Below are positions 6,448 through 41,123 of a stretch of DNA of 64,000 bases, in pieces (the stretch's first letter is position 1; the number at the start of each line of letters is the position of its first letter). The notes under the pieces were generated by a model that was not told where the DNA came from, searched no databases, and saw only the letters and a program-made list of their open reading frames with translations. Made by a program: the position numbers and the translations under genes. Origin of the DNA: Escherichia coli (GTDB taxonomy: Bacteria; Pseudomonadota; Gammaproteobacteria; Enterobacterales; Enterobacteriaceae); assembly GCF_029227855.1 (NCBI RefSeq), contig NZ_CP074356.1; one strand, 5' to 3'.

Positions 6448-6662
6448 TGTGCCTCCTGCAACTGGGTGAAATTCGCCGGTGTCAGAGTACGCCAGTGGGC
6501 TTCAAGCCACTGCTGGCAGGACGCCTGTGACTGCGGCTGACACACAACGACCCAGCCTGCCGGTAAGGCGCATTGTTGCGGCCACAGACTGAATTGCCCC
6601 TGCGCATTGCGCAAAATGTTAAACGCTCCCTGCGGATCATCGAAGGGATTACTGAATGCCAT
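6444..6662 (-). CDS. ybdZ: MbtH-like protein YbdZ
   Basis: 72-aa product MAFSNPFDDPQGAF...SLWPQ...; ATG at 6660-6662 (the ORF track begins two codons upstream at a TTG); 4-bp overlap with the entF start. Confidence 0.88.
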   Translation of the reverse strand: MAFSNPFDDPQGAFNILRNAQGQFSLWPQQCALPAGWVVVCQPQSQASCQQWLEAHWRTLTPANFTQLQEAQ

Positions 6663-6664
6663 AT

Positions 6665-7867
6665 TCAACTCCTGTCATGGAAAAGTGGTTGCCAGAGGTC
6701 GATTAGCCCCTGCATCAAGCCACCGCGCCAACAAAGCGCATCATGTCCGCCGTCAACCTGACGCCAGAAAATGGATTCTTTTATGGGGTGTAATTGCGCA
6801 TACAGCGCCTGATTGGCCCGCATGATCATCGGCTCGCGAATACCCGCTTCCAGCATAATGCGCAGACCTTCGGCGCTAACTTCACCAGCTTTAAGTTGCT
6901 CAAGTAAAACACCTTCTTGCTGCCCGCCCCGATGAGGCCACCAGTACGATCCTGACTGGCTTAATACACAGCCAAAGCGTTCAGGCCAGTGCAGTCCGGC
7001 ATACAGCGCGGAAAGTCCACCAAAACTCTGCCCGGCGACCACGGTGCGATCGGCGCGATCGCTAAAAGGGGCAATAGCTTTCACCAGGGGTAATAACTCT
7101 TGCTGTACTGCCAGCCAGAAATCCGCATTACACGGCAGTTCGTGGGCGCGGTGCGTGGTGTCAATAGCGTCGATCAACACATACACGGCGGGAGGAAGTT
7201 GCTGACGATGGGTCAACGAAGTCAGCACAGGCCAGACAGGCATACTCTGCGCCCAAAATTCGCCATCGAGCAAAACTGCCAGCGGGCGTTCTCCTGCTGT
7301 TGCATCGCCGGTGGTAAAAATCCATACACGGCGTGAATTTTTCAACCGCTCACTTTTCCAGATAATTTCTTTGGCAGGCGTTTCTGGCGCTTGCGGACAA
7401 TCCCATCCCGGTTGTAGGGGCGCTTGCGGCATTTCGAGTGCAGAAACAGCGTGCCCTCGCCCGCCTTTCCAGCTTTGTGGATTCAGCGGATCGGCTATCG
7501 CCTGGGGCAATAGTTTTCGCCAGCCTTCACGTAATTCGAGGCGATCGGGGGATGGTGCAGAAAAAATGTCATCGCGTTCGGTGGGAATAAAACAGTAGCT
7601 GCCGCGCCAGTTGGCATTAAGTTGTGTCGTCCACTGCCAGACGTTGGTACCTGCAATTCGCTGCATCGACTGGGGCTGGCTGTTCTGATGGTGATCGGTC
7701 ACACCAGTGATGTAGACCCATACGCGCTTTATCGTCGAGTATTCTTCAGAACCTTGGGGATCACGCCACCAGAAAGTGACCTCAAACATTTCGTCATTCA
7801 GACGCTGCCATTCCGGGCCATGTTTCGACTGCCACCAGCTCTCACTTCCTACTTTTAACGCCGTCAC
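6665..7867 (-). CDS. fes: Enterochelin esterase Fes
   Basis: 400-aa ORF MTALKVGSESWWQSKHGPEWQRL... with esterase GQSFGG motif; the first codon appears to be GTG. Confidence 0.93.
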   Translation of the reverse strand: MTALKVGSESWWQSKHGPEWQRLNDEMFEVTFWWRDPQGSEEYSTIKRVWVYITGVTDHHQNSQPQSMQRIAGTNVWQWTTQLNANWRGSYCFIPTERDDIFSAPSPDRLELREGWRKLLPQAIADPLNPQSWKGGRGHAVSALEMPQAPLQPGWDCPQAPETPAKEIIWKSERLKNSRRVWIFTTGDATAGERPLAVLLDGEFWAQSMPVWPVLTSLTHRQQLPPAVYVLIDAIDTTHRAHELPCNADFWLAVQQELLPLVKAIAPFSDRADRTVVAGQSFGGLSALYAGLHWPERFGCVLSQSGSYWWPHRGGQQEGVLLEQLKAGEVSAEGLRIMLEAGIREPMIMRANQALYAQLHPIKESIFWRQVDGGHDALCWRGGLMQGLIDLWQPLFHDRS

Positions 7868-7916
7868 ACCATAACCCCATGTTTACTGTGAAATTTTTCA
7901 TTGATTGCAGAAATAT

Positions 7917-7939
7917 ATTGATAATATTATTGATAACTA
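7917..7939. promoter_or_regulatory. Fur box-like site in the fes-fepA divergent promoter region
   Basis: attgataatattattgataacta contains GATAAT-type hexamer repeats resembling the Fur consensus; located between divergent iron-regulated genes. Confidence 0.55.
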
Positions 7940-8109
7940 TTTGCATTTGCAATAGCGTAATGGCGCGCCGTGGGAAGCGCGGACATTAATTAACCAACTG
8001 CACTGCGTGTCTTTCAGGATCAAAGGTTTTCGCGGTAGCGGGATGCGTCGTGTTGATGACGACCATGCCCGACAGTTGCAATTCGTGGCAAAAATGCAGG
8101 AATAAAACA

Positions 8110-10350
8110 ATGAACAAGAAGATTCATTCCCTGGCCTTGTTGGTCAATCTGGGGATTTATGGGGTAGCACAGGCACAAGAGCCAACCGATACTCCTGTTT
8201 CACATGACGATACCATTGTCGTTACCGCCGCCGAGCAGAACTTGCAGGCACCTGGCGTTTCGACCATCACCGCAGATGAAATCCGCAAAAACCCGGTTGC
8301 CCGCGATGTGTCGGAGATCATCCGTACCATGCCAGGCGTTAACCTGACCGGTAACTCCACCAGTGGTCAGCGTGGGAATAACCGACAGATTGATATTCGC
8401 GGCATGGGTCCGGAAAACACGCTGATTTTGATTGACGGCAAGCCGGTAAGCAGCCGTAACTCGGTGCGTCAGGGCTGGCGTGGCGAGCGCGATACCCGTG
8501 GTGATACCTCCTGGGTGCCACCTGAAATGATTGAACGTATTGAAGTTCTGCGTGGTCCGGCAGCTGCGCGTTATGGCAACGGCGCGGCGGGCGGCGTGGT
8601 TAACATCATTACCAAAAAAGGCAGTGGTGAGTGGCACGGCTCGTGGGACGCATATTTCAATGCGCCAGAACATAAAGAGGAAGGTGCCACCAAACGCACT
8701 AACTTTAGCCTCACCGGTCCGCTGGGCGACGAATTCAGCTTCCGCTTGTATGGCAACCTCGACAAAACTCAGGCTGACGCGTGGGATATCAACCAGGGCC
8801 ATCAGTCCGCGCGTGCCGGAACGTATGCCACGACGTTACCAGCCGGGCGCGAAGGGGTGATCAATAAAGATATTAACGGCGTGGTGCGCTGGGACTTCGC
8901 ACCATTACAATCGCTGGAACTGGAAGCAGGTTACAGCCGCCAGGGTAACCTGTATGCGGGCGATACCCAGAACACCAACTCTGACTCCTATACCCGCTCG
9001 AAATATGGCGATGAAACCAACCGTCTGTATCGCCAGAACTACTCGCTGACCTGGAACGGCGGCTGGGATAACGGCGTGACCACCAGCAACTGGGTGCAGT
9101 ACGAACACACCCGTAACTCGCGTATTCCGGAAGGTCTGGCGGGCGGTACCGAAGGGAAATTTAACGAAAAAGCGACACAGGATTTCGTCGATATCGATCT
9201 CGATGACGTGATGCTGCACAGCGAAGTTAACCTGCCGATTGATTTCCTCGTTAACCAGACGCTGACGCTGGGTACGGAGTGGAATCAGCAGCGGATGAAG
9301 GACTTGAGTTCCAACACCCAGGCGCTCACCGGGACGAATACCGGCGGCGCTATTGATGGCGTGAGTGCCACCGACCGTAGCCCGTATTCAAAAGCAGAAA
9401 TTTTCTCGCTGTTTGCCGAAAACAATATGGAGCTGACTGACAGCACCATCGTAACGCCGGGGCTGCGTTTCGATCATCACAGCATTGTTGGCAATAACTG
9501 GAGTCCGGCTCTAAACATATCGCAAGGTTTAGGCGATGACTTCACGCTGAAAATGGGCATTGCCCGTGCTTATAAAGCGCCGAGTCTGTACCAGACTAAC
9601 CCAAACTACATTCTCTACAGTAAAGGTCAGGGCTGCTATGCCAGCGCGGGCGGCTGCTATCTGCAAGGTAATGATGACCTGAAAGCGGAAACCAGCATCA
9701 ACAAAGAGATTGGTCTGGAGTTCAAACGCGACGGCTGGCTGGCGGGTGTGACCTGGTTCCGTAACGATTATCGCAATAAGATTGAAGCGGGCTATGTGGC
9801 TGTAGGGCAAAACGCAGTCGGCACCGATCTCTATCAGTGGGATAACGTACCGAAAGCGGTGGTTGAAGGTCTGGAAGGATCGTTAAACGTACCGGTTAGC
9901 GAAACGGTGATGTGGACCAATAACATCACTTATATGCTGAAGAGTGAAAACAAAACCACGGGCGACCGTTTGTCGATCATCCCGGAGTATACGTTGAACT
10001 CAACGCTGAGCTGGCAGGCACGGGAAGATTTGTCGATGCAAACAACCTTCACCTGGTACGGCAAGCAGCAGCCGAAGAAGTACAACTATAAAGGTCAGCC
10101 AGCGGTTGGACCGGAAACCAAAGAAATCAGTCCGTACAGCATTGTGGGTCTGAGCGCGACCTGGGATGTGACGAAGAATGTCAGTCTGACCGGCGGCGTG
10201 GACAACCTGTTCGACAAACGTTTGTGGCGTGCAGGTAATGCCCAGACCACGGGCGATCTGGCAGGAGCCAACTATATCGCCGGTGCCGGGGCGTATACCT
10301 ATAACGAGCCGGGACGTACGTGGTATATGAGCATTAATACTCACTTCTGA
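8110..10350 (+). CDS. fepA: TonB-dependent ferric enterobactin outer-membrane receptor FepA
   Basis: 746-aa product MNKKIHSLALLVNLGIYGVAQA..., TonB box DTIVVTA, C-terminal ...YMSINTHF; the ORF-track start at 8050 is an upstream extension. Confidence 0.96.
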   Translation: MNKKIHSLALLVNLGIYGVAQAQEPTDTPVSHDDTIVVTAAEQNLQAPGVSTITADEIRKNPVARDVSEIIRTMPGVNLTGNSTSGQRGNNRQIDIRGMGPENTLILIDGKPVSSRNSVRQGWRGERDTRGDTSWVPPEMIERIEVLRGPAAARYGNGAAGGVVNIITKKGSGEWHGSWDAYFNAPEHKEEGATKRTNFSLTGPLGDEFSFRLYGNLDKTQADAWDINQGHQSARAGTYATTLPAGREGVINKDINGVVRWDFAPLQSLELEAGYSRQGNLYAGDTQNTNSDSYTRSKYGDETNRLYRQNYSLTWNGGWDNGVTTSNWVQYEHTRNSRIPEGLAGGTEGKFNEKATQDFVDIDLDDVMLHSEVNLPIDFLVNQTLTLGTEWNQQRMKDLSSNTQALTGTNTGGAIDGVSATDRSPYSKAEIFSLFAENNMELTDSTIVTPGLRFDHHSIVGNNWSPALNISQGLGDDFTLKMGIARAYKAPSLYQTNPNYILYSKGQGCYASAGGCYLQGNDDLKAETSINKEIGLEFKRDGWLAGVTWFRNDYRNKIEAGYVAVGQNAVGTDLYQWDNVPKAVVEGLEGSLNVPVSETVMWTNNITYMLKSENKTTGDRLSIIPEYTLNSTLSWQAREDLSMQTTFTWYGKQQPKKYNYKGQPAVGPETKEISPYSIVGLSATWDVTKNVSLTGGVDNLFDKRLWRAGNAQTTGDLAGANYIAGAGAYTYNEPGRTWYMSINTHF

Positions 10351-10389
10351 TGCTAACGTCAGATTGTTGACAAAGTGCGCGTAGTTCAT

Positions 10390-10487
10390 GCCGGATGCGG
10401 CGTGAACGCCTTATCCGGCCTACAAAAATCTTGCCAATTCAATATATTGCAGGACCACGTAGGCCTGATAAGCGTAGCGCATCAGGC
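10390..10487. repeat. REP/BIME elements (two REP palindromes) between fepA and entD
   Basis: gccggatgcggcgtgaacgccttatccggcctac and gtaggcctgataagcgtagcgcatcaggc are typical E. coli REP sequences. Confidence 0.8.
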
Positions 10488-10515
10488 AGTTTTGCGTTTG
10501 TCATCAGTCTCTAAT

Positions 10516-11145
10516 ATGGTCGACATGAAAACTACGCATACCGCCCTCCCCTTTGCCGGAAATACGCTGCATTTTGTTAAGTTCGATCCGGCGAGTTTTT
10601 GTGAGCAGGATTTACTCTGGCTGCCACACTACGCGCAACTGCAACACGCTGGACGTAAACGTAAAACAGAGCATTTAGCCGGACGGATCGCTGCAGTTTA
10701 TGCGCTGCGGGAATATGGCTATAAATGTGTGCCCGCAATCGGCGAGCTACGCCAACCTGTGTGGCCTGCGGGGGTATACGGCAGTATTAGCCACTGTGGG
10801 GCTACGGCATTAGCCGTGGTATCTCGTCAACCGATTGGCATTGATATTGAAGAAATTTTTTCTGCGCAAACAGCGGCAGAATTGACAGACAACATTATTA
10901 CACCAGCAGAACACGAGCGACTCGCAGAATGCGGTTTAACCTTTTCTCTGGCGCTGACACTGGCATTTTCCGCCAAAGAGAGCGCATTTAAGGCAAGCAA
11001 GATACAGGCCGCTCAAGGTTTTCTGGATTATCAGATAATTAGCTGGAATAAACAGCAGATCATCATTCGACTAGAGGATGAGCAGTTTGCTGTGCACTGG
11101 CAGATAAAAGAAAAAATAGTCATAACGCTGTGCCAACACGATTAA
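10516..11145 (+). CDS. entD: Phosphopantetheinyl transferase EntD
   Basis: 209-aa product MVDMKTTHTALPFAGNTLHFVKFDP...; the ORF-track start at 10375 runs through the REP element and is rejected. Confidence 0.92.
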   Translation: MVDMKTTHTALPFAGNTLHFVKFDPASFCEQDLLWLPHYAQLQHAGRKRKTEHLAGRIAAVYALREYGYKCVPAIGELRQPVWPAGVYGSISHCGATALAVVSRQPIGIDIEEIFSAQTAAELTDNIITPAEHERLAECGLTFSLALTLAFSAKESAFKASKIQAAQGFLDYQIISWNKQQIIIRLEDEQFAVHWQIKEKIVITLCQHD

Positions 11146-11164
11146 TTGACAACATCTGGTACGA

Positions 11165-11635
11165 TTCGCCCGCAGCCATTACTGACCGCGGGCGAAAGTG
11201 TAAAGCAGGTGCCTTACCATCCTGACCTGACAACCGGATATGCGGGGATTGCTCCCCGCACAACGGCTACTTCTTCGGTTCGTAAGCGAGAACAGCCTTA
11301 AACTCAATATTACGTTCCTTCACCGTAAACTCACACAGCGAGTCGCGGACCAGAAGCGTAAATCCCAGCACCGTTAAACACAGCACTATGACTGCCACAA
11401 GGGCATATTTCGTCAGCATGTTTATATTGCCTCCATGCGAAGAAGGGACTACCATCCGAGTTGTTCAGGTTTGGGTAGGTAGCCCCAGGGTTGATAGAAA
11501 TATCGTCCTGGGGCTTCATCTTTCCAGACCTCAGAGTTAACCTGAAACCGGAAAGCTTCAGGCACCCGCCGTTATCTTACCCTTCCTCAGCAAAATAGCT
11601 GTTTATTTATACAGTGAATCCTGTTTCGGACTTCT
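11165..11635. repeat. Tandem repeat unit 1 carrying a hok/sok-type type I toxin-antitoxin locus
   Basis: About 470 bp that realigns with 11670-12137 at roughly 95% identity by eye; contains hok copy 1. Confidence 0.85.
11267..11419 (-). CDS. hokE: Hok-family small membrane toxin (HokE-like), copy 1
   Basis: 50-aa product [50 protein letters not shown]; an overlapping mok-frame ORF is present (11331..11519). Confidence 0.85.
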
Positions 11636-11669
11636 GTTGGCAAAACTGATCATTGCCCTTAAAACGACA

Positions 11670-12137
11670 TCGCCCGCAGCCATTGCTGACCGCGGGCGAA
11701 AGTGTAAAGCAGGTGCCTTACCACCCTGACCTGACAACCGGATATGCGGGGATTACTCCCCGCACAACGGCTACTTCTTCGGTTCGTAAGCGAGAACAGC
11801 CTTAAACTCAATATTACGTTCCTTCACCGTAAACTCACACAGCGAGTCTCCGACCAGAAGCGTAAATCCCAGTACCGTCAAACACAGCACTATGACTGCC
11901 ACAAGGGCATATTTCGTCAGCATGTTTATATTGCCTCCATGCGAAGAAGGGACTACCATCCAAATTGTCTGGTTTGGAGTGGCAGCCCCAGGGTTGATAG
12001 AAATATCTCCTGGGGCTTCATCTTTCCAGACCTCAGAGTAAACCTGAAACCGGAAAGCTTCAGGCACCCGCCGTTATCTTACCCTTCCTCAGCAAAATGG
12101 CTGTTTATTTATACAGTGAGTCCTGTTTCGGACTTCT
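11670..12137. repeat. Tandem repeat unit 2 carrying a second hok/sok-type locus
   Basis: Direct repeat of 11165-11635 with scattered substitutions. Confidence 0.85.
11771..11923 (-). CDS. Hok-family small membrane toxin, copy 2
   Basis: 50-aa product identical to copy 1 except G for R at the LLV(G/R)DSL position. Confidence 0.8.
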
Positions 12138-26998: not shown

Positions 26999-27734
26999 TT
27001 ATTAAGTTCAAATTCAGGGCGTGGTGCATCACCTCCTGGTATTGTTGATCAACAAATTAGAGAAAAACTTATTAAACATATGAAATATCGAAGGCTTTTA
27101 TTTTTCAAAGTTTCACGAGATGTTTGTATATGAAACTTAGTTAAATCTGTGTTTCTTCCAATTGTAGATCACAATGCCCTTTCTAAATTTTCATCGTTAT
27201 AAACAAGCCATCTATCATATAAAGCAATGAATAATTTAATCGCGATTAATCATCATTAATTGTTATATTATTCACTCAATCTATTTATCAAGTGAATTTG
27301 ATAAATTCCTAATTTAAAATATCCACTATTGAGCCAGTATTTAACAACGTTAAGATGTGCAATGTGCAGATCATGTTATCAGGGTGGAGCGGTAGCATAT
27401 ATTTCTTATGCAATCATTCATTTTAATAATGTTAATTGGATTATTTATTGCTGTGAATAAAAATATATTATGAATATTGGTTTAACTTTGCGTTTTTGTT
27501 ACTCGTTGTGATATGCGTACCTGTCCTGAATAACGCCAAGAAACAAGAGGTTGAGCTTGTGATTATTTTTTTGACTGAACAGACACCCGTTTCTGTAAAG
27601 TAATATTTAAACAAAATTCTCACATAACCATAGCATTTTCTGTTCCTTCCCTAATAACGTCTGAAGTCGTCCCGCTTATCACATTATCCGCAGTTGTACG
27701 GTACGGATCATTATTCATTTTACTGGAGGTTGCT

Positions 27735-29636
27735 ATGTCAACCGGATTACGTTTCACACTGGAAGTGGACGGCCTGCCGCCGGATGCTTTTGCGGTGGTT
27801 TCCTTTCATCTGAACCAGTCACTCTCTTCGCTCTTTTCCCTCGATCTCTCCCTGGTCAGCCAGCAGTTTCTCTCCCTTGAATTTGCGCAGGTGCTGGACA
27901 AAATGGCCTACCTGACGATATGGCAGGGCGATGAAGTACAGCGCCGGGTGAAAGGCGTGGTGACCTGGTTTGAACTCGGGGAGAACGACAAAAACCAGAT
28001 GCTGTACAGCATGAAGGTGCACCCGCCGCTGTGGCGTGCCGGTCTGCGCCAGAACTTCCGTATCTTCCAGAACGAGGACATCAAAAGCATCCTCGGCACG
28101 ATGTTGCAGGAAAACGGGGTGACCGAATGGAGTCCGCTGTTCAGCGAGCCGCATCCTTCCCGTGAGTTTTGTGTCCAGTACGGTGAGACTGATTACGATT
28201 TCCTGTGCCGGATGGCGGCGGAGGAAGGCATCTTCTTTTATGAGGAGCATGCTTACAAAAGTACCGACCAGAGCCTGGTGCTGTGCGACACAGTCCGCCA
28301 TCTGCCCGAATCTTTTGAAATCCCATGGAACCCGAACACCCGTACCGAGGTGAGCACCCTCTGCATCAGCCAGTTCCGCTACAGCGCACAAATCCGCCCT
28401 TCTTCCGTGGTGACCAAAGACTACACCTTTAAACGCCCCGGCTGGGCCGGACGTTTTGAACAGGAAGGCCAGCACCAGGACTACCAGCGCACGCAGTATG
28501 AAGTGTATGACTACCCCGGACGTTTCAAGGGTGCCCACGGGCAGAACTTTGCCCGCTGGCAGATGGACGGCTGGCGAAACAATGCAGAAACCGCGCGGGG
28601 AATGAGTCGCTCGCCGGAGATATGGCCGGGACGACGAATTGTGCTGACGGGGCATCCGCAGGCGAACCTGAACCGGGAATGGCAGGTGGTGGCAAGTGAA
28701 CTGCACGGCGAACAGCCACAGGCGGTGCCAGGACGGCAGGGAGCGGGGACGGCGCTGGAGAACCATTTTGCGGTGATCCCGGCAGACAGAACATGGCGAC
28801 CACAGCCGTTGCTGAAACCGCTGGTCGACGGCCCGCAGAGCGCTGTCGTGACAGGACCGGCAGGCGAGGAAATCTTCTGCGACGAACATGGTCGCGTGCG
28901 GGTGAAGTTCAACTGGGACCGCTATAACCCGTCAAACCAGGACAGTTCGTGCTGGATCCGTGTGGCACAGGCGTGGGCAGGCACCGGTTTTGGCCACCTG
29001 GCGATACCGCGTGTGGGTCAGGAGGTGATTGTAGACTTCCTCAACGGCGATCCGGACCAGCCGATCATTATGGGGCGCACCTACCACCAGGAAAACCGCA
29101 CCCCCGGCAGCCTGCCGGGAACAAAGACGCAGATGACCATCCGCTCCAAAACGTACATGGGCAGCGGATTTAATGAGCTGAAGTTTGATGATGCGACAGG
29201 GAGAGAACAGGTCTACATCCACGCGCAGAAGAACATGGATACCGAAGTGCTCAACGACCGTACCACCACCGTAAAACACGATCACCACGAAACCGTAAAA
29301 AATGACCAGACGGTCACGATCCAGGAAGGTAACCGCCTTCTTACGGTGGAAAAAGGCCACAAGATCACCGGAGTACTGAAAGGGTCTTTATCTGAGGATG
29401 TCTTTCAGGACAGAGGCACGATTGCCGGTTCGGTGCATGTTGACGCTGTAAACAATGGTGGCGAAGGCGACGGTATACAGGCTTATACGGCGATTAAGGA
29501 AATTTTGCTGGCCGTGGAGGAAAGCAAAATTGCGCTGACGCCGGATGGCATTCAGCTACAGGTCGGGGAATCGACGGTAATCAGGCTGTCGAAGGATGGC
29601 ATCACCATCGTGGGCGGTTCTGTTTTCATCAACTGA
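27735..29636 (+). CDS. vgrG: Type VI secretion spike protein VgrG (Rhs-element Vgr protein)
   Basis: 633-aa ORF MSTGLRFTLEVDGLPPDAFAVVSFHLNQSLSSLFSLDLSL...; gp27/gp5-like organisation, immediately upstream of Eag/PAAR-Rhs genes. Confidence 0.88.
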   Translation: MSTGLRFTLEVDGLPPDAFAVVSFHLNQSLSSLFSLDLSLVSQQFLSLEFAQVLDKMAYLTIWQGDEVQRRVKGVVTWFELGENDKNQMLYSMKVHPPLWRAGLRQNFRIFQNEDIKSILGTMLQENGVTEWSPLFSEPHPSREFCVQYGETDYDFLCRMAAEEGIFFYEEHAYKSTDQSLVLCDTVRHLPESFEIPWNPNTRTEVSTLCISQFRYSAQIRPSSVVTKDYTFKRPGWAGRFEQEGQHQDYQRTQYEVYDYPGRFKGAHGQNFARWQMDGWRNNAETARGMSRSPEIWPGRRIVLTGHPQANLNREWQVVASELHGEQPQAVPGRQGAGTALENHFAVIPADRTWRPQPLLKPLVDGPQSAVVTGPAGEEIFCDEHGRVRVKFNWDRYNPSNQDSSCWIRVAQAWAGTGFGHLAIPRVGQEVIVDFLNGDPDQPIIMGRTYHQENRTPGSLPGTKTQMTIRSKTYMGSGFNELKFDDATGREQVYIHAQKNMDTEVLNDRTTTVKHDHHETVKNDQTVTIQEGNRLLTVEKGHKITGVLKGSLSEDVFQDRGTIAGSVHVDAVNNGGEGDGIQAYTAIKEILLAVEESKIALTPDGIQLQVGESTVIRLSKDGITIVGGSVFIN

Positions 29637-29663
29637 TTCACTCAGATTATCAGGGAGTATTTT

Positions 29664-30125
29664 ATGCAGTTCACTTTTAATGAAGGCCACATTCAACTGC
29701 CGTCTCAATGGCAGGATCAGTCAATGCAGGTCCTGGTGTCCACAGATAACAGTGGCATCAACCTGGTCATTACCCGCGAAGCCGTTCCACAGGGAACCCT
29801 GACACCAGAGCTGTACCAGGAAACGCTGGCGCTGTACCAGGGCAAACTTGATGGGTACACCGAACATGCCTGCCGGGAAATCACTCTGGCAGAGGCCCCG
29901 GCCTGGCTGCTGGATTATTCCTGGAACGGTCCGGAAGATGAGGGGAATCAGGGGCGGATTAGCCAGATAGCCGTATTCCAGCGGCGTGGAGATACGCTGC
30001 TGACCTTCACTTTCAGCACCTCCTTATCCCTGAAGAACAGTCAAAAGACGATGCTGCTGGAGGTGATAAAGAGCTTCACCCCGTTGCCACCGGAGAATGA
30101 CATCCAAAAGGACCAGCCGCGCTGA
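29664..30125 (+). CDS. DUF1795/Eag-family T6SS effector chaperone (EagR-like)
   Basis: 153-aa ORF placed between vgrG and a prePAAR-Rhs gene, the canonical position of Eag chaperones; assignment from context and overall similarity, no HMM run. Confidence 0.7.
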   Translation: MQFTFNEGHIQLPSQWQDQSMQVLVSTDNSGINLVITREAVPQGTLTPELYQETLALYQGKLDGYTEHACREITLAEAPAWLLDYSWNGPEDEGNQGRISQIAVFQRRGDTLLTFTFSTSLSLKNSQKTMLLEVIKSFTPLPPENDIQKDQPR

Positions 30126-30144
30126 CATAAACGAGGGATAACAC

Positions 30145-33100
30145 ATGAGTGAAGGACCAGGCGGGCCACAGGGAGCGACCGCAGGCGGTACGCTGGCAAT
30201 GCGAATGCTGTCACAGCAGGCGATGGTCGCCAGCCAGATGAAACGGGCAGCCAACGACAAAGCCATTGCACAGATGCTGGCATCAAAAAAGTCCGGCCCC
30301 CCCGCCGCCAGGCTGGGCGATGAAATTCAGCACAAGAGTTTTTTGGGGGCGCTGGCAGGGGCCGTGCTGGGGGCGATAGTGACCATCGCAGAAGGTTGCC
30401 TGATTATGGCCGCCTGTGCCACCGGCCCTTATGCGCTGGTTCTGGTGCCTGCGCTGATGTATGCCAGCTATAAGGCGAGTGATTATGTGGAGGAGAAACA
30501 GAACCAGCTTGAATCATGGATAAACAGCTTTTGTGACACGGACGGCGCCATCAATACCGGTTCTGAAAATGTAAACATTAACGGAAAGCCCGCTGCCAGG
30601 GCCGCCGTCACCCTTCCCCCTCCTCCCCCACCTGGAGCAATACCTGAAATCCCACAGGGGGAACCCTCATGGGGTGATATTGCCACTGACCTGCTTGAAT
30701 CGGCAGCGGAAAAAGCAGTACCACTGGCGAAGGCCTGGGGGAACGCTGTTATCACCCTGACGGACAGCAATGCCGGTTTTATGGATCGCGTCAGCGCCGG
30801 CGCATCGCTTCTGTTTCCCGCCGGTCCGGTATTAATGGAGTTTGCCACCATGGTGGGCGGGCGTGGCGAAATCAAAAAAGATGTGGATTTCCCGGAAGCC
30901 GGTGAGGACACGGCGCTCTGCGACAAGGAGAACAAACCACCGAGGATAGCCCAGGGCAGCAGCAACGTCTTTATCAACAATCAGCCCGCCGCGCGCAAGG
31001 GCGACAAACTGGAGTGCAGCGCGGCAATCGTGGAAGGTTCGCCGGACGTCTTTATTGGCGGTGAACAGGTGACCTATCTGGATATCCAGCCAGAGTTCCC
31101 GCCGTGGCAGAGAATGATCCTGGGGGGAATAACGATAGCCAGCTATCTTCTGCCGCCAGCGGGACTGCTGGGAAAACTGAAGAATCTGGCGAGACTCGGC
31201 AAACTGGGGAACCTGCTGGGGAAAAGCGGGAAGCTGCTGGGGGCAAAGCTCGGCGCGTTGCTGGGAAAAACAGATAAGTCGTTAAAAAGTATTGCCAATA
31301 AAGTCATCAGATGGGTAACAGATCCTGTCGATCCGGTAACCGGCGCGTACTGCGACGAACGTACCGACTTTACGCTGGGCCAGACCCTCCCCCTCTCCTT
31401 CACCCGTTTCCACAGTTCTGTACTGCCGCTGCATGGCCTGACCGGCGTGGGCTGGAGCGACTCCTGGAGCGAATACGCCTGGGTGCGTGAACAGGGAAAC
31501 CGGGTGGATATCATCAGCCAGGGAGCCACGCTGAACTTCGCCTTCGACGGTGACAGTGATACGGCGGTTAACCCGTATCACGCCCAGTACATTCTGCGCC
31601 GCCGCGATGATTATCTGGAGCTGTTCGACAGGGATGCACTGAGCAGCCGCTTCTTTTATGACGCCTTTCCGGGAATGCGTCTGCGCCACCCGGTGACTGA
31701 CGATACCAGCGATGACCGCCTGGCACACAGCCCCAATGACCGGATGTACATGCTGGGCGGGATGAGCGACACCGCCAGCAACCGCATCACGTTTGAGCGC
31801 GACAGCCAGTACCGGATCACAGGTGTCAGTCACACCGACGGGATCCGGCTTAAACTGACGTACCACGCCAGCGGCTACCTGAAAGCCATTCACCGCACGG
31901 ATAACGGCATACAGACGCTGGCGACCTACGAACAGGATGCGCGGGGGCGGCTGACAGAAGCGGATGCGCGGCTGGACTACCACCTGTTTTATGAGTACGA
32001 CGCTGCGGACCGGATCATCCGCTGGTCCGATAACGACCAGACGTGGAGCCGTTTCACCTACGATGAACAGGGCCGGTGCGTGAATGTCACCGGGGCGGAG
32101 GGCTATTACAACGCCACGCTGGACTATGGTGACGGCTGCACCACCGTGACGGACGGCAAGGGCATTCACCGTTATTACTATGATCCTGACGGCAATATTC
32201 TGCGGGAAGCAGCGCCGGACGGCAGCACCACCACGTATGAATGGGATGAATTCCATCACCTGCTGGCCCGTCACTCCCCTGCCGGGCGGGTGGAGAAATT
32301 TGAATACAACGCCGCACACGGTCAGTTAAGCCGTTACACGGCGGCAGACGGCGCGGAGTGGCAGTACCGCTATGATGAGCGCGGCCTGCTCAGCAACATC
32401 ACCGACCCTGCCGGGCAGACGTGGACACAGCAGTGTGATGAACGCGGCCTGCCGGTAAGTCTGGTGTCGCCACAGGGCGAAGAGACCCGGCTGGCATACA
32501 CCGCTCAGGGGCTGCTGTCGGGAATATTCCGCCAGGATGAACGGCGTCTGGGCATAGAGTACGACCACCACAACCGGCCGGAAACACTCACCGACGTGAT
32601 GGGCCGTGAACACCACACCGAATACAGCGGTCACGACCTGCCGGTGAAGATGCGCGGCCCCGGCGGTCAGTCAGTGCGGTTGCAGTGGCAGCAGCACCAT
32701 AAACTGAGTGGCCTTGAGCGCACTGGCACCGGCGCGGAAGGGTTCAGCTATGACCGCCACGGCAACCTGCTGGCCTGGACGGACGGCAATGGTGTTGTCT
32801 GGACAATGGAGTACGGCCCGTTCGATTTGCCGGTGGCGCGAACGGACGGTGAAGGCCACCGCTGGCAGTACCGCTATGATAAAGACACGCTGCAACTGAC
32901 AGAAGTCATTAACCCGCAGGGTGAGTCATATCTTTATGTTCTGGATAACTGCGGCCGGGTGACGGAAGAGCATGACTGGGGCGGCGTGGTCTGGCGTTAC
33001 CGCTATGACGCCGATGGCCTGTGTACCGCCAGGGTCAACGGCCTGGAGGAAACCATCCTCTACAGCCGGGACGACGCAGGCCGCCTGGCAGAAGTCATCA

Positions 33101-34974
33101 CGCCGGAAGGCAAAACGCAGTATGCGTATGACAAATCCGGCAGGCTGACGGGTATCTTCAGCCCGGACGGCACATCACAGCGCACCGGCTATGACGAACG
33201 CGGGCGGGTGAATGTCACCACTCAGGGCCGACGGGCCATTGAATACCACTACCCCGATGAACACACCGTCATCCGCTGTATCCTGCCACCGGAAGATGAA
33301 CGCGACAGACACCCCGGTGAATCCCTGCTGAAAACCACGTACCGCTACAACGCAGCCGGAGAACTGGCAGAGGTCATCCTGCCGGAGGATGAGACGCTGA
33401 CGTTCAGCCGTGATGAGGCAGGACGTGAAGTGCTCCGGCACAGTAACCGGGGTTTTGCCTGTGAGCAGGGCTGGAATGCAGCCGGTCAGCTTACCAGCCA
33501 GCGCGCCGGACTTTTCCCGGCAGAAGCCACATGGGGCGGGCTGCTCCCCTCACTGGTACGGGAGTACCGTTACGACAGCGCGGGCAATGTGTCGGCTGTC
33601 ACCAGCCGGGAAGATTACGGACGGGAAACTCGCCGGGAGTACCGGCTGGACCGGAACGGCCAGGTCACGGCGGTGACAGCCTCAGGCACCGGGCTGGGCT
33701 ATGGCGAAGGCGATGAGTCCTATGGCTATGACAGTTGTGGCTACCTGAAGGCGCAGTCTGCGGGCAGGCACCGGATAAGTGAAGAGACTGAGCGGTATGC
33801 CGGAGGCCACCGGCTGAAACAGGCCGGAAACACGCAGTATGACTATGACGCCGCAGGCCGGATGGTCAGCCGCACCAGACACCGTAACGGCTATCGCCCG
33901 GAAACAGAGCGGTTCCGGTGGGACAGCCGGGACCAGCTGACCGGGTATTGCAGCGCACAGGGTGAACAGTGGGAATACCGCCACGACGCCAGCGGCAGAC
34001 GGACGGAAAAACGCTGCGACCGGAAGAAAATCCGCTTCACGTACCTGTGGGACGGCGACAGTATTGCGGAAATCCGGGAATACCGCGATGATAAACTGTA
34101 CAGCGTAAGGCACCTGGTGTTTAACGGCTTTGAGCTGATAAGCCAGCAGTTTAGCCGGGTACGGCAGCCGCACCCGTCCGTGGCCCCGCAGTGGGTGACG
34201 CGGACGAATCATGCGGTGAGCGATCTGACGGGCCGTCCGCTGATGCTCTTTAACAGTGAAGGTAAAACCGTCTGGCGACCGGGACAGACCAGCCTGTGGG
34301 GGCTGGCACTCAGCCTGCCCGCGGACACCGGCTACCCGGACCCGCGCGGGGAACTGGACGCGGAAGCCGACCCCGGCCTGCTGTATGCAGGACAGTGGCA
34401 GGATGCGGAATCCGGGCTGTGCTATAACCGGTTCCGGTATTACGAGCCGGAAACAGGGATGTACCTGGTGAGTGATCCGCTGGGGTTGCTGGGGGGTGAG
34501 CAGACTTACCGGTATGTGCCGAATCCGTGTGGGTATGTTGATCCTTTGGGATTAGCAACATGTCCCATAATCAGACAACGGGTGCTGGCTAACCTTGAAG
34601 CCAGTCGGGCAGCAAGGGCTGCATCTAATTTTGGTAAGAAAAATATCTATGATTTTATCAAGGCAACTCAATCTGCTATCCCTGGCACCTCTATCCCAAA
34701 ATCTTTTGAGATTATAACTGCTAATGGTACTTTCTGGGTACACCCAAATGCTACAAAACATATGGCTGAATATTTGACTCGGAACGGTCTCTCACATTCA
34801 ACTTCTGTAGAGAGCCAAATAATGTTAACAAGTTTTCACGAAGCTGTAAGTTTGGCTAGTGCTCAAGGTATAAAGTATGAAGAAATGATGAATGTTGGCG
34901 GCTGGGAACTAGTATTTAGTCAAGCTAAATCTGACTCGGCTTTATCAGTTATTAAACATGCTCTTTATAAATGA
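30145..34974 (+). CDS. prePAAR/PAAR-domain Rhs polymorphic toxin (T6SS effector) with variable C-terminal toxin domain
   Basis: 1609 aa; prePAAR motif AARLGDEIQH near the N-terminus with hydrophobic helices; PAAR-like segment (GDKLECSAAIVEGSPDVFIGGE); many YD/RHS repeats; PxxxxDPxGL core-end motif (NPCGYVDPLGL) followed by about 150 aa of divergent C-terminus. Confidence 0.9.
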   Translation: MSEGPGGPQGATAGGTLAMRMLSQQAMVASQMKRAANDKAIAQMLASKKSGPPAARLGDEIQHKSFLGALAGAVLGAIVTIAEGCLIMAACATGPYALVLVPALMYASYKASDYVEEKQNQLESWINSFCDTDGAINTGSENVNINGKPAARAAVTLPPPPPPGAIPEIPQGEPSWGDIATDLLESAAEKAVPLAKAWGNAVITLTDSNAGFMDRVSAGASLLFPAGPVLMEFATMVGGRGEIKKDVDFPEAGEDTALCDKENKPPRIAQGSSNVFINNQPAARKGDKLECSAAIVEGSPDVFIGGEQVTYLDIQPEFPPWQRMILGGITIASYLLPPAGLLGKLKNLARLGKLGNLLGKSGKLLGAKLGALLGKTDKSLKSIANKVIRWVTDPVDPVTGAYCDERTDFTLGQTLPLSFTRFHSSVLPLHGLTGVGWSDSWSEYAWVREQGNRVDIISQGATLNFAFDGDSDTAVNPYHAQYILRRRDDYLELFDRDALSSRFFYDAFPGMRLRHPVTDDTSDDRLAHSPNDRMYMLGGMSDTASNRITFERDSQYRITGVSHTDGIRLKLTYHASGYLKAIHRTDNGIQTLATYEQDARGRLTEADARLDYHLFYEYDAADRIIRWSDNDQTWSRFTYDEQGRCVNVTGAEGYYNATLDYGDGCTTVTDGKGIHRYYYDPDGNILREAAPDGSTTTYEWDEFHHLLARHSPAGRVEKFEYNAAHGQLSRYTAADGAEWQYRYDERGLLSNITDPAGQTWTQQCDERGLPVSLVSPQGEETRLAYTAQGLLSGIFRQDERRLGIEYDHHNRPETLTDVMGREHHTEYSGHDLPVKMRGPGGQSVRLQWQQHHKLSGLERTGTGAEGFSYDRHGNLLAWTDGNGVVWTMEYGPFDLPVARTDGEGHRWQYRYDKDTLQLTEVINPQGESYLYVLDNCGRVTEEHDWGGVVWRYRYDADGLCTARVNGLEETILYSRDDAGRLAEVITPEGKTQYAYDKSGRLTGIFSPDGTSQRTGYDERGRVNVTTQGRRAIEYHYPDEHTVIRCILPPEDERDRHPGESLLKTTYRYNAAGELAEVILPEDETLTFSRDEAGREVLRHSNRGFACEQGWNAAGQLTSQRAGLFPAEATWGGLLPSLVREYRYDSAGNVSAVTSREDYGRETRREYRLDRNGQVTAVTASGTGLGYGEGDESYGYDSCGYLKAQSAGRHRISEETERYAGGHRLKQAGNTQYDYDAAGRMVSRTRHRNGYRPETERFRWDSRDQLTGYCSAQGEQWEYRHDASGRRTEKRCDRKKIRFTYLWDGDSIAEIREYRDDKLYSVRHLVFNGFELISQQFSRVRQPHPSVAPQWVTRTNHAVSDLTGRPLMLFNSEGKTVWRPGQTSLWGLALSLPADTGYPDPRGELDAEADPGLLYAGQWQDAESGLCYNRFRYYEPETGMYLVSDPLGLLGGEQTYRYVPNPCGYVDPLGLATCPIIRQRVLANLEASRAARAASNFGKKNIYDFIKATQSAIPGTSIPKSFEIITANGTFWVHPNATKHMAEYLTRNGLSHSTSVESQIMLTSFHEAVSLASAQGIKYEEMMNVGGWELVFSQAKSDSALSVIKHALYK

Positions 34975-37750: not shown

Positions 37751-38112
37751 ATGAATAAAAATGAAATCCATTTCCCTATAGGATATGGTTGGTTGAATGA
37801 AAAAAAATTATTGGCACCAGTGAATTTAGCCAATTAGAACCATGGTTTTATCTAGATGAGAACAGGTGTTTTTTTGCGAATAAAAAATGGCCAAATGTCA
37901 TAGGTGAACAATTATTCGCTTTTGCTAAACGTCAAGATAATGATGAATTGGCTTGTTTCAAAATTAATGAATCTGGAGTCTGTGAGGGTGTTTATTTAAT
38001 TAATGGGTGGACTCCTAACGGGTTTGATATTATACAATTTTACCCTGATTTTTGGGAATGGGTACATTTGGTTATACAAGATGTCTCGGAGTGGATTGAT
38101 AATAAAGGATAA
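37751..38112 (+). pseudogene. Frameshifted small gene (immunity-protein-like) with an A8 tract at the frame switch
   Basis: ATG at 37751 reads 27 codons to a stop; a shifted frame from about 37813 continues for 99 codons to TAA at 38110-38112; the shift coincides with gaaaaaaaatt at 37798-37808. Confidence 0.45.
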
Positions 38113-38141
38113 TTTGAAACAAAAGTAAAAAACCGCCTTCA

Positions 38142-38840
38142 TTGAAGGTAACGTGGAGTGGTGGGCGGAGCAGCCTGCCCGCAGACACAGACTACCCGGA
38201 CCCGCGCGGGGAGCGGGACGCGGAAGCCGACCCCGGCCTGCTGTATGCAGGACAGTGGCAGGATGCGGAATCCGGACTGTGCTATAACCGGTTCCGGTAT
38301 TACGAGCCGGAAACCGGGATGTACCTGGTGAGTGATCCCCTGGGGTTGCTGGGGGGTGAGCAGACTTACCGGTATGTGCCTAATCCTAGTGGGTATGTTG
38401 ATCCTCTGGGATTAGCAACGTGTCCTATACTCAGACAGTGGGCGCTGACTAACCTTGAAGCCAGTCGGGCAGCAAGGGCTGCATCTAATTTTGGTAAGCC
38501 TCTGGTCCAGCGAAATAAAACGATTGGCGATAAAGTAAGGGATATGATTGCCAAAGAGAGGGGAACCACTCTAATTGAACAAAATTATAGAGTGACAGGA
38601 GGATTAAAGCGTATTGACGTTGTTGATGGAGTAACGGGTATAGAATCTAAAGTCGATCGAACAGGGTTAACAACCCGAGTACGGCAAGAGGTAGCGCGGG
38701 ATATTAAGATTTTGAGAAGTGAGCAACTTGATCAAATTGAATGGGTGTTTACAAGAAGTTCAACTACAGGGAAGATTGGGCCAACTAAACCACTTGAAGA
38801 TCTTTTAAATAAACATGGTATACCGATTATTTATCGATAA
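38142..38840 (+). CDS. Orphan Rhs C-terminal fragment: core end (DPxGL) plus alternative C-terminal toxin domain, candidate PD-(D/E)xK nuclease
   Basis: 38171-38498 nearly identical to 34311-34638 of the full rhs; the C-terminal domain diverges after ...AASNFGK; contains RIDVVDG...GIESK; the ORF begins at TTG and has no PAAR or core of its own. Confidence 0.7.
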   Translation: MKVTWSGGRSSLPADTDYPDPRGERDAEADPGLLYAGQWQDAESGLCYNRFRYYEPETGMYLVSDPLGLLGGEQTYRYVPNPSGYVDPLGLATCPILRQWALTNLEASRAARAASNFGKPLVQRNKTIGDKVRDMIAKERGTTLIEQNYRVTGGLKRIDVVDGVTGIESKVDRTGLTTRVRQEVARDIKILRSEQLDQIEWVFTRSSTTGKIGPTKPLEDLLNKHGIPIIYR

Positions 38841-38851
38841 GGAGTGATAGT

Positions 38852-39409
38852 GTGAAACTCAAACCGATTGGTGACTTTTTAAACAAAAATGGGTTTATAA
38901 AAAATGGTAACAATGATTTTTATAAAGTTCATGATAAGTTTGTAAATTGTATAAATTTTCAAAAAAAGAGTACAGGTGATATTTTTTTTATAAACACAGG
39001 TGTTCATCCTGTGTTCGAAAATTTTTGCAATGAACCACCGAAAAAAGAAATAGATTGTTACATCCGTAACCGTGTGTGTGATGGACTAAGTATATCTTTG
39101 CTGCATTCTTTTGAAGGTAGTGAGTTTGTTATCAGTGAGATAAAAAACAAAGCGTTTTGTTTTTTTGAATACTTTGATTCATTGAATAAAATATTCGATG
39201 CTATTCGTGTTGTAGATATTGAAGAGAGAAATATTTGCGATGAGCTAAGTGGTGTAAGCAGCGTAAGATTAGCTTTGATGTGTATGAACTACCAGTATGA
39301 GAAAAAAAAATTTAGCCTTGTTTCTGATTTTGCGAACTATGGTCTTGCTATATCTAGAGGCCCGGTACCGAAAAAAGCATTTAAGGATATGATAAAAATA
39401 ACAGAGTGA
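38852..39409 (+). CDS. Putative immunity protein for the orphan Rhs C-terminal toxin
   Basis: 185-aa AT-rich ORF with GTG start 11 bp after the orphan toxin stop and GGAG upstream. Confidence 0.6.
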   Translation: MKLKPIGDFLNKNGFIKNGNNDFYKVHDKFVNCINFQKKSTGDIFFINTGVHPVFENFCNEPPKKEIDCYIRNRVCDGLSISLLHSFEGSEFVISEIKNKAFCFFEYFDSLNKIFDAIRVVDIEERNICDELSGVSSVRLALMCMNYQYEKKKFSLVSDFANYGLAISRGPVPKKAFKDMIKITE

Positions 39410-39434
39410 TACCTAATCCGGTGTAATACTTGCT

Positions 39435-39646
39435 GCCTGTGTACCGCGAAGATTAACGGCCGGGAGGAAACTATTCTCTACAACCGGGACGCCACAGGCC
39501 GCCTGGCAGAAGTCATCACGCCGGAAGGCAAAACGCAGTATGCGTATGACAAATCCGGCAGGCTGACGGGTATCTTCAGCCCGGACGACACATCACAGCG
39601 CACCGGCTATGAAGAACGCGGGCGGGTGAATGTCACCACTCAGGGC
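39435..39646 (+). pseudogene. Internal Rhs core fragment
   Basis: About 210 bp at roughly 90% identity to 33018-33228 of the full-length rhs; truncated at both ends, abutting the ISAs1 left end. Confidence 0.8.
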
Positions 39647-40936
39647 AGGGAAAGATCATCCAAAGTACACTTTTTGTACTAAATAATTCGCATTTTATGT
39701 TTAAAAATGGAGATATTCCTCATTACCTAAAGCTGTTTTTTATTGCTTATACATGATCAAATACTCCTTACATAATTAAGGAGAACAAAATGGAACTTAA
39801 AAAATTGATGGAACATATTTCTATTATCCCCGATTACAGACAAGCCTGGAAAGTGGAACATAAATTATCGGATATTCTGCTGTTGACTATTTGTGCCGTT
39901 ATTTCGGGTGCAGAAGGCTGGGAAGATATAGAGGATTTTGGGGAAACACATCTCGATTTTTTGAAGCAATATGGTGATTTTGATAATGGTATTCCTGTTC
40001 ACGATACCATCGCCAGAGTTATATCCTGTATCAGTCCTTCAAAATTTCACGAGTGTTTTATTAACTGGATGCGAGATTGCCATACTTCAGATGATAAAGA
40101 CGTCATCGCAATTGATGGAAAAACACTCCGGCATTCTTATGACAAGAGTCGCCGCAAGGGAGCGATTCATGTCATTAGTGCGTTCTCAACAATGCACAGT
40201 CTGGTCATCGGACAGATCAGGACGGATGAGAAATCCAATGAAATTACAGCTATCCCTGAACTTCTTAACATGCTGGATATTAAAGGAAAAATCATCACAA
40301 CTGATGCGATGGGTTGCCAGAAAGATATTGCAGAGAAGATACAAAAACAGGGCGGTGATTATTTATTCGCTGTAAAAGGAAACCAGGGGCGGCTAAATAA
40401 AGCCTTCGAGGAAAAATTTCCGCTGAAAGAATTAAATAATCCAGAGCATGACAGTTACGCCATTAGTGAAAAGAGTCACGGCAGAGAAGAAATCCGTCTT
40501 CATATTGTTTGCGATGTCCCTGATGAACTTATTGATTTCACGTTTGAATGGAAAGGACTGAAGAAATTATGCGTGGCAGTCTCTTTTCGGTCAATAATAG
40601 CAGAACAAAAGAAAGAGCCAGAAATGACGGTCAGATATTATATCAGTTCTGCTGATTTAACCGCAGAGAAGTTCGCCACAGCAATCCGAAACCACTGGCG
40701 CGTGGAGAATAAGCTGCACTGGCGTCTGGACGTGGTAATGAATGAAGACGACTGCAAAATAAGAAGAGGAAACGCCGCAGAATTATTTTCAGGGATACGG
40801 CACATCGCTATTAATATTTTAACGAATGATAAGGTATTCAAGGCAGGGTTAAGACGTAAGATGCGAAAAGCAGCCATGGACAGAAACTATCTCGCGTCAG
40901 TCCTTGCGGGGAGCGGGCTTTCGTAATCTTGCCCTG
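39646..40936 (+). mobile_element. ISAs1-family insertion sequence (H-repeat element), about 1.29 kb
   Basis: Imperfect terminal inverted repeats CAGGGAAAGATCA (39646-39658) and TAATCTTGCCCTG (40924-40936); single transposase ORF; inserted in rhs-derived sequence. Confidence 0.75.
39790..40926 (+). CDS. ISAs1-family transposase (H-repeat-associated protein, YhhI/YdcC-like)
   Basis: 378-aa [55 protein letters not shown]...; the stop codon lies inside the right inverted repeat. Confidence 0.88.
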
Positions 40937-41123
40937 CGTTAACCGCCCCTCCTTGACACCACGCTTTTGTCTACATTCTACACAAACGGCAACTTTTATA
41001 ACCAGTGTAAAAATAACGTGCCGCAATAGTCATACCTATTAATGGTAAAAAGCTGTCACAATTCATAAAAAACCTTAATATACGCCACCCTAAACATAAC
41101 CAGCGTTAATGTAAGGTTTTTGT

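Follow-up and report, generated by a model that had tools for sequence, protein, structure and literature searches.

Within a 64,000-nucleotide stretch of Escherichia coli DNA (contig NZ_CP074356.1; hereafter the window), positions 38142–39409 likely hold an orphan Rhs toxin/immunity cassette of a type VI secretion system (T6SS) effector island, encoding a PD-(D/E)xK toxin and, as its inhibitor, a DUF4304 protein. Three parts make up the cassette: a 328-bp remnant of an rhs 3′ core with a PxxxxDPxGL motif, a 113-aa predicted toxin domain and a candidate immunity gene placed in the style of an overlapping operon. The effector island that houses it is inserted between cusS and nfrB. The cassette is an ordinary example of a well-known kind of element. 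Orphan Rhs cassettes are a reservoir for changing contact-dependent weapons, so the biology of this one is textbook, and nothing found in the window overturns current understanding.

Organization of the island and the orphan module

RefSeq annotation of a 100%-identical locus gives the order cusS, vgrG, DUF1795, PAAR-rhs ... ISAs1, nfrB, with the products vgrG, DcrB-related (DUF1795) and RHS core protein. The window ORFs 29664..30125 and 30145..34974 belong to this operon-like array of vgrG, DUF1795 (EagR-type) and PAAR-Rhs genes. The latter ORF (+ strand; ORF list and RefSeq) is the main full-length PAAR-Rhs gene, of 1609 aa, and could act as the delivery scaffold onto which the orphan is swapped. 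The main rhs, the orphan (38171..38840, +) and the immunity ORF (38852..39409, +) have one orientation. The first-pass annotation had proposed an orphan Rhs C-terminal toxin/immunity module at this site, and its position downstream of, and co-oriented with, full-length vgrG, DUF1795 and PAAR-rhs genes agrees with that proposal.

The 3.5 kb around the orphan contain many rhs fragments and probable orphan immunity ORFs. One 212-nt rhs core fragment (39435..39646, +), identified by repeat and locus comparison as a copy of 33017–33228, travels with the toxin/DUF4304 module and abuts an ISAs1-family (H-repeat) element at 39641..40937 (+; transposase 39790..40926). According to ORFs, repeats and RefSeq, this element marks the nfrB-side boundary of the rhs island.

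The repeated block was defined by repeat search, pairwise alignment and direct count. The orphan rhs 3′-core remnant (38171..38498, +) aligns with the 3′ end of the main rhs core up to ...NFGK (34311..34638, +) over 328 bp with 19 mismatches (94.2% identity), and its longest perfect runs are 60, 50, 41 and 38 bp. A repeat finder paired 34311–34610 with 38171–38470 at 94%. The coordinates noted earlier for the duplication of the main rhs 3′ core are correct to the base. Homology breaks off exactly after AATTTTGGTAAG (...NFGK), past which the main and orphan sequences are unrelated; 5′ of 38171 lies AT-rich sequence, also unrelated to the main rhs. The remnant encodes the C-terminal part of the Rhs core (TIGR03696 Rhs_assc_core, E 1e-18, C-terminal core only) and is devoid of the N-terminal PAAR and YD-shell region.

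Within the remnant, PSGYVDPLGL (38385..38414, +; ORF residues 82–91) is an instance of the PxxxxDPxGL motif, which marks the site of Rhs C-terminal autoproteolysis and toxin demarcation (PMC7043789, PMC7618764). It is followed by a linker of about 27 aa (ATCPILRQWALTNLEASRAARAASNFGK; 38415..38498, +) that alignment shows to be common to the main Rhs and that also precedes the toxin domain in a Salmonella homologue; the cassette breakpoint falls after the linker. The frame then runs unbroken to the stop at 38840 through a different C-terminal domain of 113 aa, unrelated to the end of the main gene, as the earlier reading of a sequence switch had it. GC content changes from 0.61 in the orphan core piece to about 0.28–0.33 in the immunity ORF. 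The TTG at 38142 opens the 232-codon ORF (38142..38840) simply because it is the earliest potential initiation codon following a stop; ahead of the orphan no convincing start codon was found. RefSeq describes the toxin stretch as an N-terminally truncated rhs pseudogene with a start equivalent to 38172.

The toxin domain is predicted to adopt a PD-(D/E)xK fold

The toxin domain (38499..38840, +; 113 aa plus stop) is predicted to be a minimal PD-(D/E)xK (restriction-endonuclease-fold) enzyme. Its AF2 model (pLDDT 93.5, pTM 0.84) has the topology H-E-E-E-H-E-H-E, in which the modeled elements H2-20, E26-32, E35-42, E46-52, H59-73 and E79-85 correspond to an alpha-beta-beta-beta-alpha-beta core. 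D40 (codon 38616–38618, +) lies within strand E35-42, and E49 (38643–38645, +) and K51 (38649–38651, +) lie within strand E46-52. Among 141 homologues, N6, G10, K51, G53, G94 and P95 were present in all, D40 and E49 in 140 each and E27 in 138; Q63 was found in 81/141, and ExK was invariant. The D...ExK spacing had been taken as a sign of a restriction-endonuclease fold. The confidently predicted fold, its structural matches to nucleases and the conservation of D40, E49 and K51 all favor that assignment. By this model, D40, E49 and K51 would be the metal-binding and catalytic residues and D15, E27 and R37 their helpers.

An exhaustive HMM search assembled a homologue family of 997 clusters at E<=1e-3. 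In 155 of the 159 best-scoring proteins, with lengths up to 3630 aa, the domain ends no more than 7 residues from the C-terminus. Its carriers have Rhs/YD cores or PT-HINT, and Rhs/YD proteins of 1416–2165 aa bear it in metagenomes. A word-indexed protein search yielded just 10 homologues, all of them short; full-length carriers surfaced only in the exhaustive HMM search and in BLAST of E. coli genomes.

Foldseek matches in afdb50 were Rhs, HINT and "Tox-REase-7 domain-containing" proteins with TM 0.8–0.9. Five matches bore the last name (TM 0.74–0.85, E 7e-10 to 3e-7), the closest at TM 0.79–0.85 and 28–42% identity, so that Tox-REase-7 proteins are the nearest named relatives by predicted structure. 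The solved structures that best matched the model were NucS, SfsA, nicking and type II restriction enzymes, and the EC869 CdiA-CT DNase. By sequence, PF15649 (Tox-REase-7) did not match the window domain even at E 10, nor any of 42 domain segments or 143 whole homologues at E 0.1. Pfam-A, including Tox-REase-2/-3/-5/-9, gave no match for the toxin part of the 232-aa ORF, the 113-aa domain, the 42 segments or the 143 homologues, the sole trace among homologues being the DpnII-MboI restriction enzyme (E 0.007–0.012, 1–2 members). This comparison covered the families with Pfam models, to which Tox-REase-1, -4 and -6 (Zhang et al. 2012) do not belong. No model in NCBIfam, PADLOC or PHROGs recognized the domain, and searches of PDB sequences with the single sequence and a 42-sequence profile yielded noise (designed proteins, a ribosomal protein). 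Because no curated sequence model matches, the nuclease assignment rests on predicted structure and motif conservation. Pfam, NCBIfam and PADLOC thus miss a sizeable family of toxins whose PD-(D/E)xK signature is clear, and consequently its members are labeled "hypothetical" or rhs pseudogene in hundreds of genomes.

Tox-REase-7 (PF15649) is likewise a restriction-endonuclease-fold C-terminal domain of polymorphic toxins (Rhs, CdiA, PT-HINT), with the motif set GxxxE, IxD, ExK and Q (Zhang et al. 2012, PMC3482391). The window family shares the order of a small helix motif, xD, ExK and Q, but its helix motif is N-x3-G-x4-D (G10-x4-D15) instead of GxxxE, and its pre-aspartate motif is RRxD (R37-R38-x-D40) instead of IxD. 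The immunity families listed for Tox-REase-7 are Imm-HEAT, Imm23 and Imm54, without DUF4304 (PMC3482391). EC869 CdiA-CT (4g6u) and the Tox-REase-5 protein TseT of P. aeruginosa (7dym) resemble the window domain in catalytic fold, here predicted, and in their C-terminal position on a delivered polymorphic toxin. Each is neutralized by a small protein encoded downstream, an arrangement repeated here, where neutralization would follow the same pattern. AF1548 (1y88) and NucS/EndoMS (2vld, 5gke), at ~16% identity, are not toxins; they have additional domains and serve archaea as housekeeping or repair nucleases.

From this predicted fold we infer that the domain is a nuclease and that its substrate is probably DNA rather than RNA. 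Killing would most likely proceed by nucleic-acid cutting in the cytoplasm of a neighboring cell. A PD-(D/E)xK-fold toxin that is an RNase (for example, a tRNase) and not a DNase is distinctly unlikely, since the best structural matches are DNA enzymes and, among named toxins, Tox-REase-7 proteins are the closest relatives. One protein with a Tox-REase-7 domain, A. baumannii CdiA2-CT, breaks chromosomal DNA according to work cited in bioRxiv 10.64898/2026.03.25.714310.

DUF4304 is a candidate immunity family

The candidate cognate immunity protein (38852..39409, +; 185 aa) starts at a GTG 11 nt after the toxin stop, with GGAG 7 nt upstream. It matches PF14137 (DUF4304) at E 6.7e-10, residues 7–75 aligning to positions 2–75 of the 115 in the model, and RefSeq has an intact CDS at the same coordinates named DUF4304 domain-containing protein. 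The GTG-initiated, AT-rich ORF described earlier was thus recovered as such. Its proposed role as the module's own immunity gene gained support from other loci: a DUF4304 gene directly follows the toxin homologue in 5/9 sampled. All five are closer homologues, from Pectobacterium, Proteus and three metagenomic Rhs genes, with toxin domains 50–60% identical, and in each DUF4304 starts 2–12 nt past the toxin stop. More divergent toxin clades pair with another downstream family, which has no Pfam match.

From this conserved gene adjacency, DUF4304 can be proposed as a candidate immunity family. The DUF4304 protein would then be a specific inhibitor of the toxin and would neutralize it. A literature search on DUF4304 and PF14137 found no paper, and a dedicated immunity role, if true, would give the family its first functional assignment.

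Distribution and full-length form

E. coli JNEC-KY178 carries the 1268-bp orphan stretch at 100% identity, and of 5426 complete E. coli genomes, 110 have it at >=99%. An intact 1611-aa PAAR-Rhs that ends in the toxin domain is encoded at the same cusS-nfrB locus of strains PapRG-06-3 and A15. The first-pass annotation had made its case depend on the existence of such strains, and these are two. Because the domain is found on an intact Rhs elsewhere, the cassette is a deployable one. Window positions 27001–34638 correspond to 3260–10897 of the full-length-form locus (L003) at 97.8%, and 38171–39600 to 10570–11999 at 93%. The 328-bp block is what separates the window arrangement from that of PapRG-06-3 and A15, in keeping with the suggestion that it is the homology for a swap. 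A chimeric query that joined the main core, the repeat and the orphan domain detected the recombinant junction in 0 of the 110 orphan-allele genomes; the only matches came from four divergent-allele genomes.

To be delivered, the toxin domain would have to form the C-terminus of a full-length PAAR-Rhs mounted on VgrG. Having no delivery shell, the orphan would have only two ways to act. By the first, RecA-type recombination between the 328-bp repeats would delete 3860 bp, taking out the resident toxin together with its immunity genes, and would recreate the gene of PapRG-06-3 and A15; such recombination onto the full-length Rhs could occur in the window strain. By the second, an internal promoter would let the toxin act, at a low level, within the producing cell.

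A candidate internal promoter

The Salmonella P2 internal rhs transcription start maps 89 nt upstream of the PxxxxDPxGL codons, and a P2 promoter has also been reported upstream of Rhs toxins in E. coli (PMC7043789). In EHEC rhsF/rhsG, the C-terminal domain and the immunity gene are expressed from internal starts located 5′ of the autoprotease site (PMC7618764). The position in the orphan that lies 89 nt upstream of these codons is 38296, and a putative extended −10-like element, TGCTATAAC (38280..38288, +), ends 8 nt before it; the same element is found in the main gene at 34420–34428. The orphan keeps 125 nt upstream of 38296, and in-frame ATG (38319) and CTG (38325) codons follow the putative start, neither with a clear Shine-Dalgarno sequence. 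A scan for consensus sigma-70 promoters on the + strand of 38100–38850 listed none, TGCTATAAC included. Because a promoter-like element sits where internal Rhs promoters were mapped, the orphan need not be silent and, judging from sequence and position, may be expressed in the window strain.

Substitutions in the window copy

At codon 53 of the toxin domain (38655..38657, +; ORF residue 172), the window has GAT (Asp), whereas every homologue has Gly (141/141). The responsible G-to-A change at 38656 is private to the window sequence and strain JNEC-KY178 (1/110 genomes), and G53 adjoins the catalytic lysine K51. Strain and homologue comparison revealed another change, R37K (AAG, 38607..38609, +), at a position that is Arg in 140/141 homologues; it occurs in every orphan-allele copy read (window, JNEC-KY178, AR_0067 and ST2747). 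The orphan and full-length alleles differ by three amino acids in all, each changed on the orphan side, and two of these are at essentially invariant positions. The dN/dS between alleles, from small counts, was 0.13–0.4 for the toxin (0.13 against the full-length allele) and 0.22–0.30 for the immunity gene. The 232-codon reading frame is intact in the window and the three other strains. Because G53D hits an invariant glycine and is joined by the clade-wide R37K, the window copy of the toxin may be attenuated.

Alternative explanations

The same substitutions bear on a tentative alternative of some weight, in which selection keeps only DUF4304, as an orphan immunity protein against full-length toxin of the PapRG-06-3/A15 type, and the toxin half is a remnant that is losing its activity and will not be deployed again. 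The pattern of R37K and private G53D, with all differences on the orphan side, would fit decay, as would the RefSeq designation of the toxin part as a pseudogene beside an intact DUF4304 CDS, the lack of recombinants among the 110 genomes and the many rhs pieces and likely orphan immunity ORFs in the surrounding 3.5 kb; there is precedent for orphan immunity genes being retained (PMC6730261). However, the frame is unbroken in all copies read and the stretch is conserved at >=99% in 110 genomes; D40, E49 and K51 are unchanged and R37K is conservative; the low toxin dN/dS speaks against decay, and the autoproteolysis motif and the 328-bp homology have been kept. An origin of the ORF pair as a chance frame in rhs-rearrangement junk, with no toxin/immunity meaning, would suit the arbitrary TTG and a region rich in fragments, but is refuted by a family of about 1000 clusters whose motifs are strongly conserved, a confident fold prediction, a gene pair conserved across genera and the intact full-length gene in other strains.

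Another reading, by analogy rather doubtful for this locus, is that the orphan is transcribed from an internal promoter and forms a type II toxin-antitoxin-like pair acting inside the producer, independently of the T6SS. Salmonella rhs orphans and E. coli O157 rhsF/rhsG have been demonstrated to act internally in this way (PMC7043789, PMC7618764). The placement of TGCTATAAC like that of the Salmonella P2 start, the retained upstream 125 nt, the internal starts known from E. coli and EHEC and the in-frame ATG and CTG are all consistent with it, but the promoter assignment draws on position and a 5/6 hexamer match, the consensus scan was empty and the candidate start codons have no clear Shine-Dalgarno sequence. 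This reading is compatible with the swappable toxin/immunity cassette that we favor and does not exclude it. A broader version, which we consider unlikely, has the toxin as an uncurated sister clade of Tox-REase-7 (~1000 clusters) with DUF4304 as its dedicated immunity family, and the orphan expressed from a core promoter as a T6SS-independent toxin-antitoxin-like pair, with attenuation by R37K and G53D selected to make intracellular expression tolerable.

Relation to known Rhs systems

The preferred orphan cassette closely parallels the orphan rhs-CT/rhsI modules of Salmonella Typhimurium (STM0291; PMC7043789) and Dickeya/Pectobacterium (bioRxiv 10.1101/2025.05.08.652813). These too consist of a truncated 3′ rhs core with PxxxxDPxGL, an alternative toxin and its own immunity gene, lie immediately 3′ of a full-length rhs in the same orientation, and include C-terminal domains that are orphan in some strains and full-length in others. 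Nothing essential differs, but here the homology is short (328 bp, 94%), recombinants numbered 0/110 and the window copy has substitutions at invariant positions.

The gene order of the window, vgrG, eagR (DUF1795) and PAAR-Rhs-CT followed by an immunity gene, is also that of the E. coli islands of Ma et al. 2017, as relayed in PMC6730261, and of EHEC S-loop 44 (rhsF-rhsFI / rhsG-rhsGI; PMC7618764). Secondary toxin/immunity pairs further downstream are another common feature, and transcription of such loci has been described to begin internally, 5′ of the autoprotease site. Of the named Rhs-CT1 to CT10 domains that Pfam can detect, the toxin domain matches none. The immunity ORF of the main gene ("RNA-binding protein" in PGAP) was considered as an EHEC RhsFI; unlike the EHEC locus, the main-gene cassette of the window has no DNA-level counterpart in O157 genomes.

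The cusS-nfrB island constitutes a natural allelic series, comprising the full-length gene, a 413-aa fragment, the 232-aa orphan and the orphan with G53D, with which it could be tested how orphan toxins are mobilized or decay.

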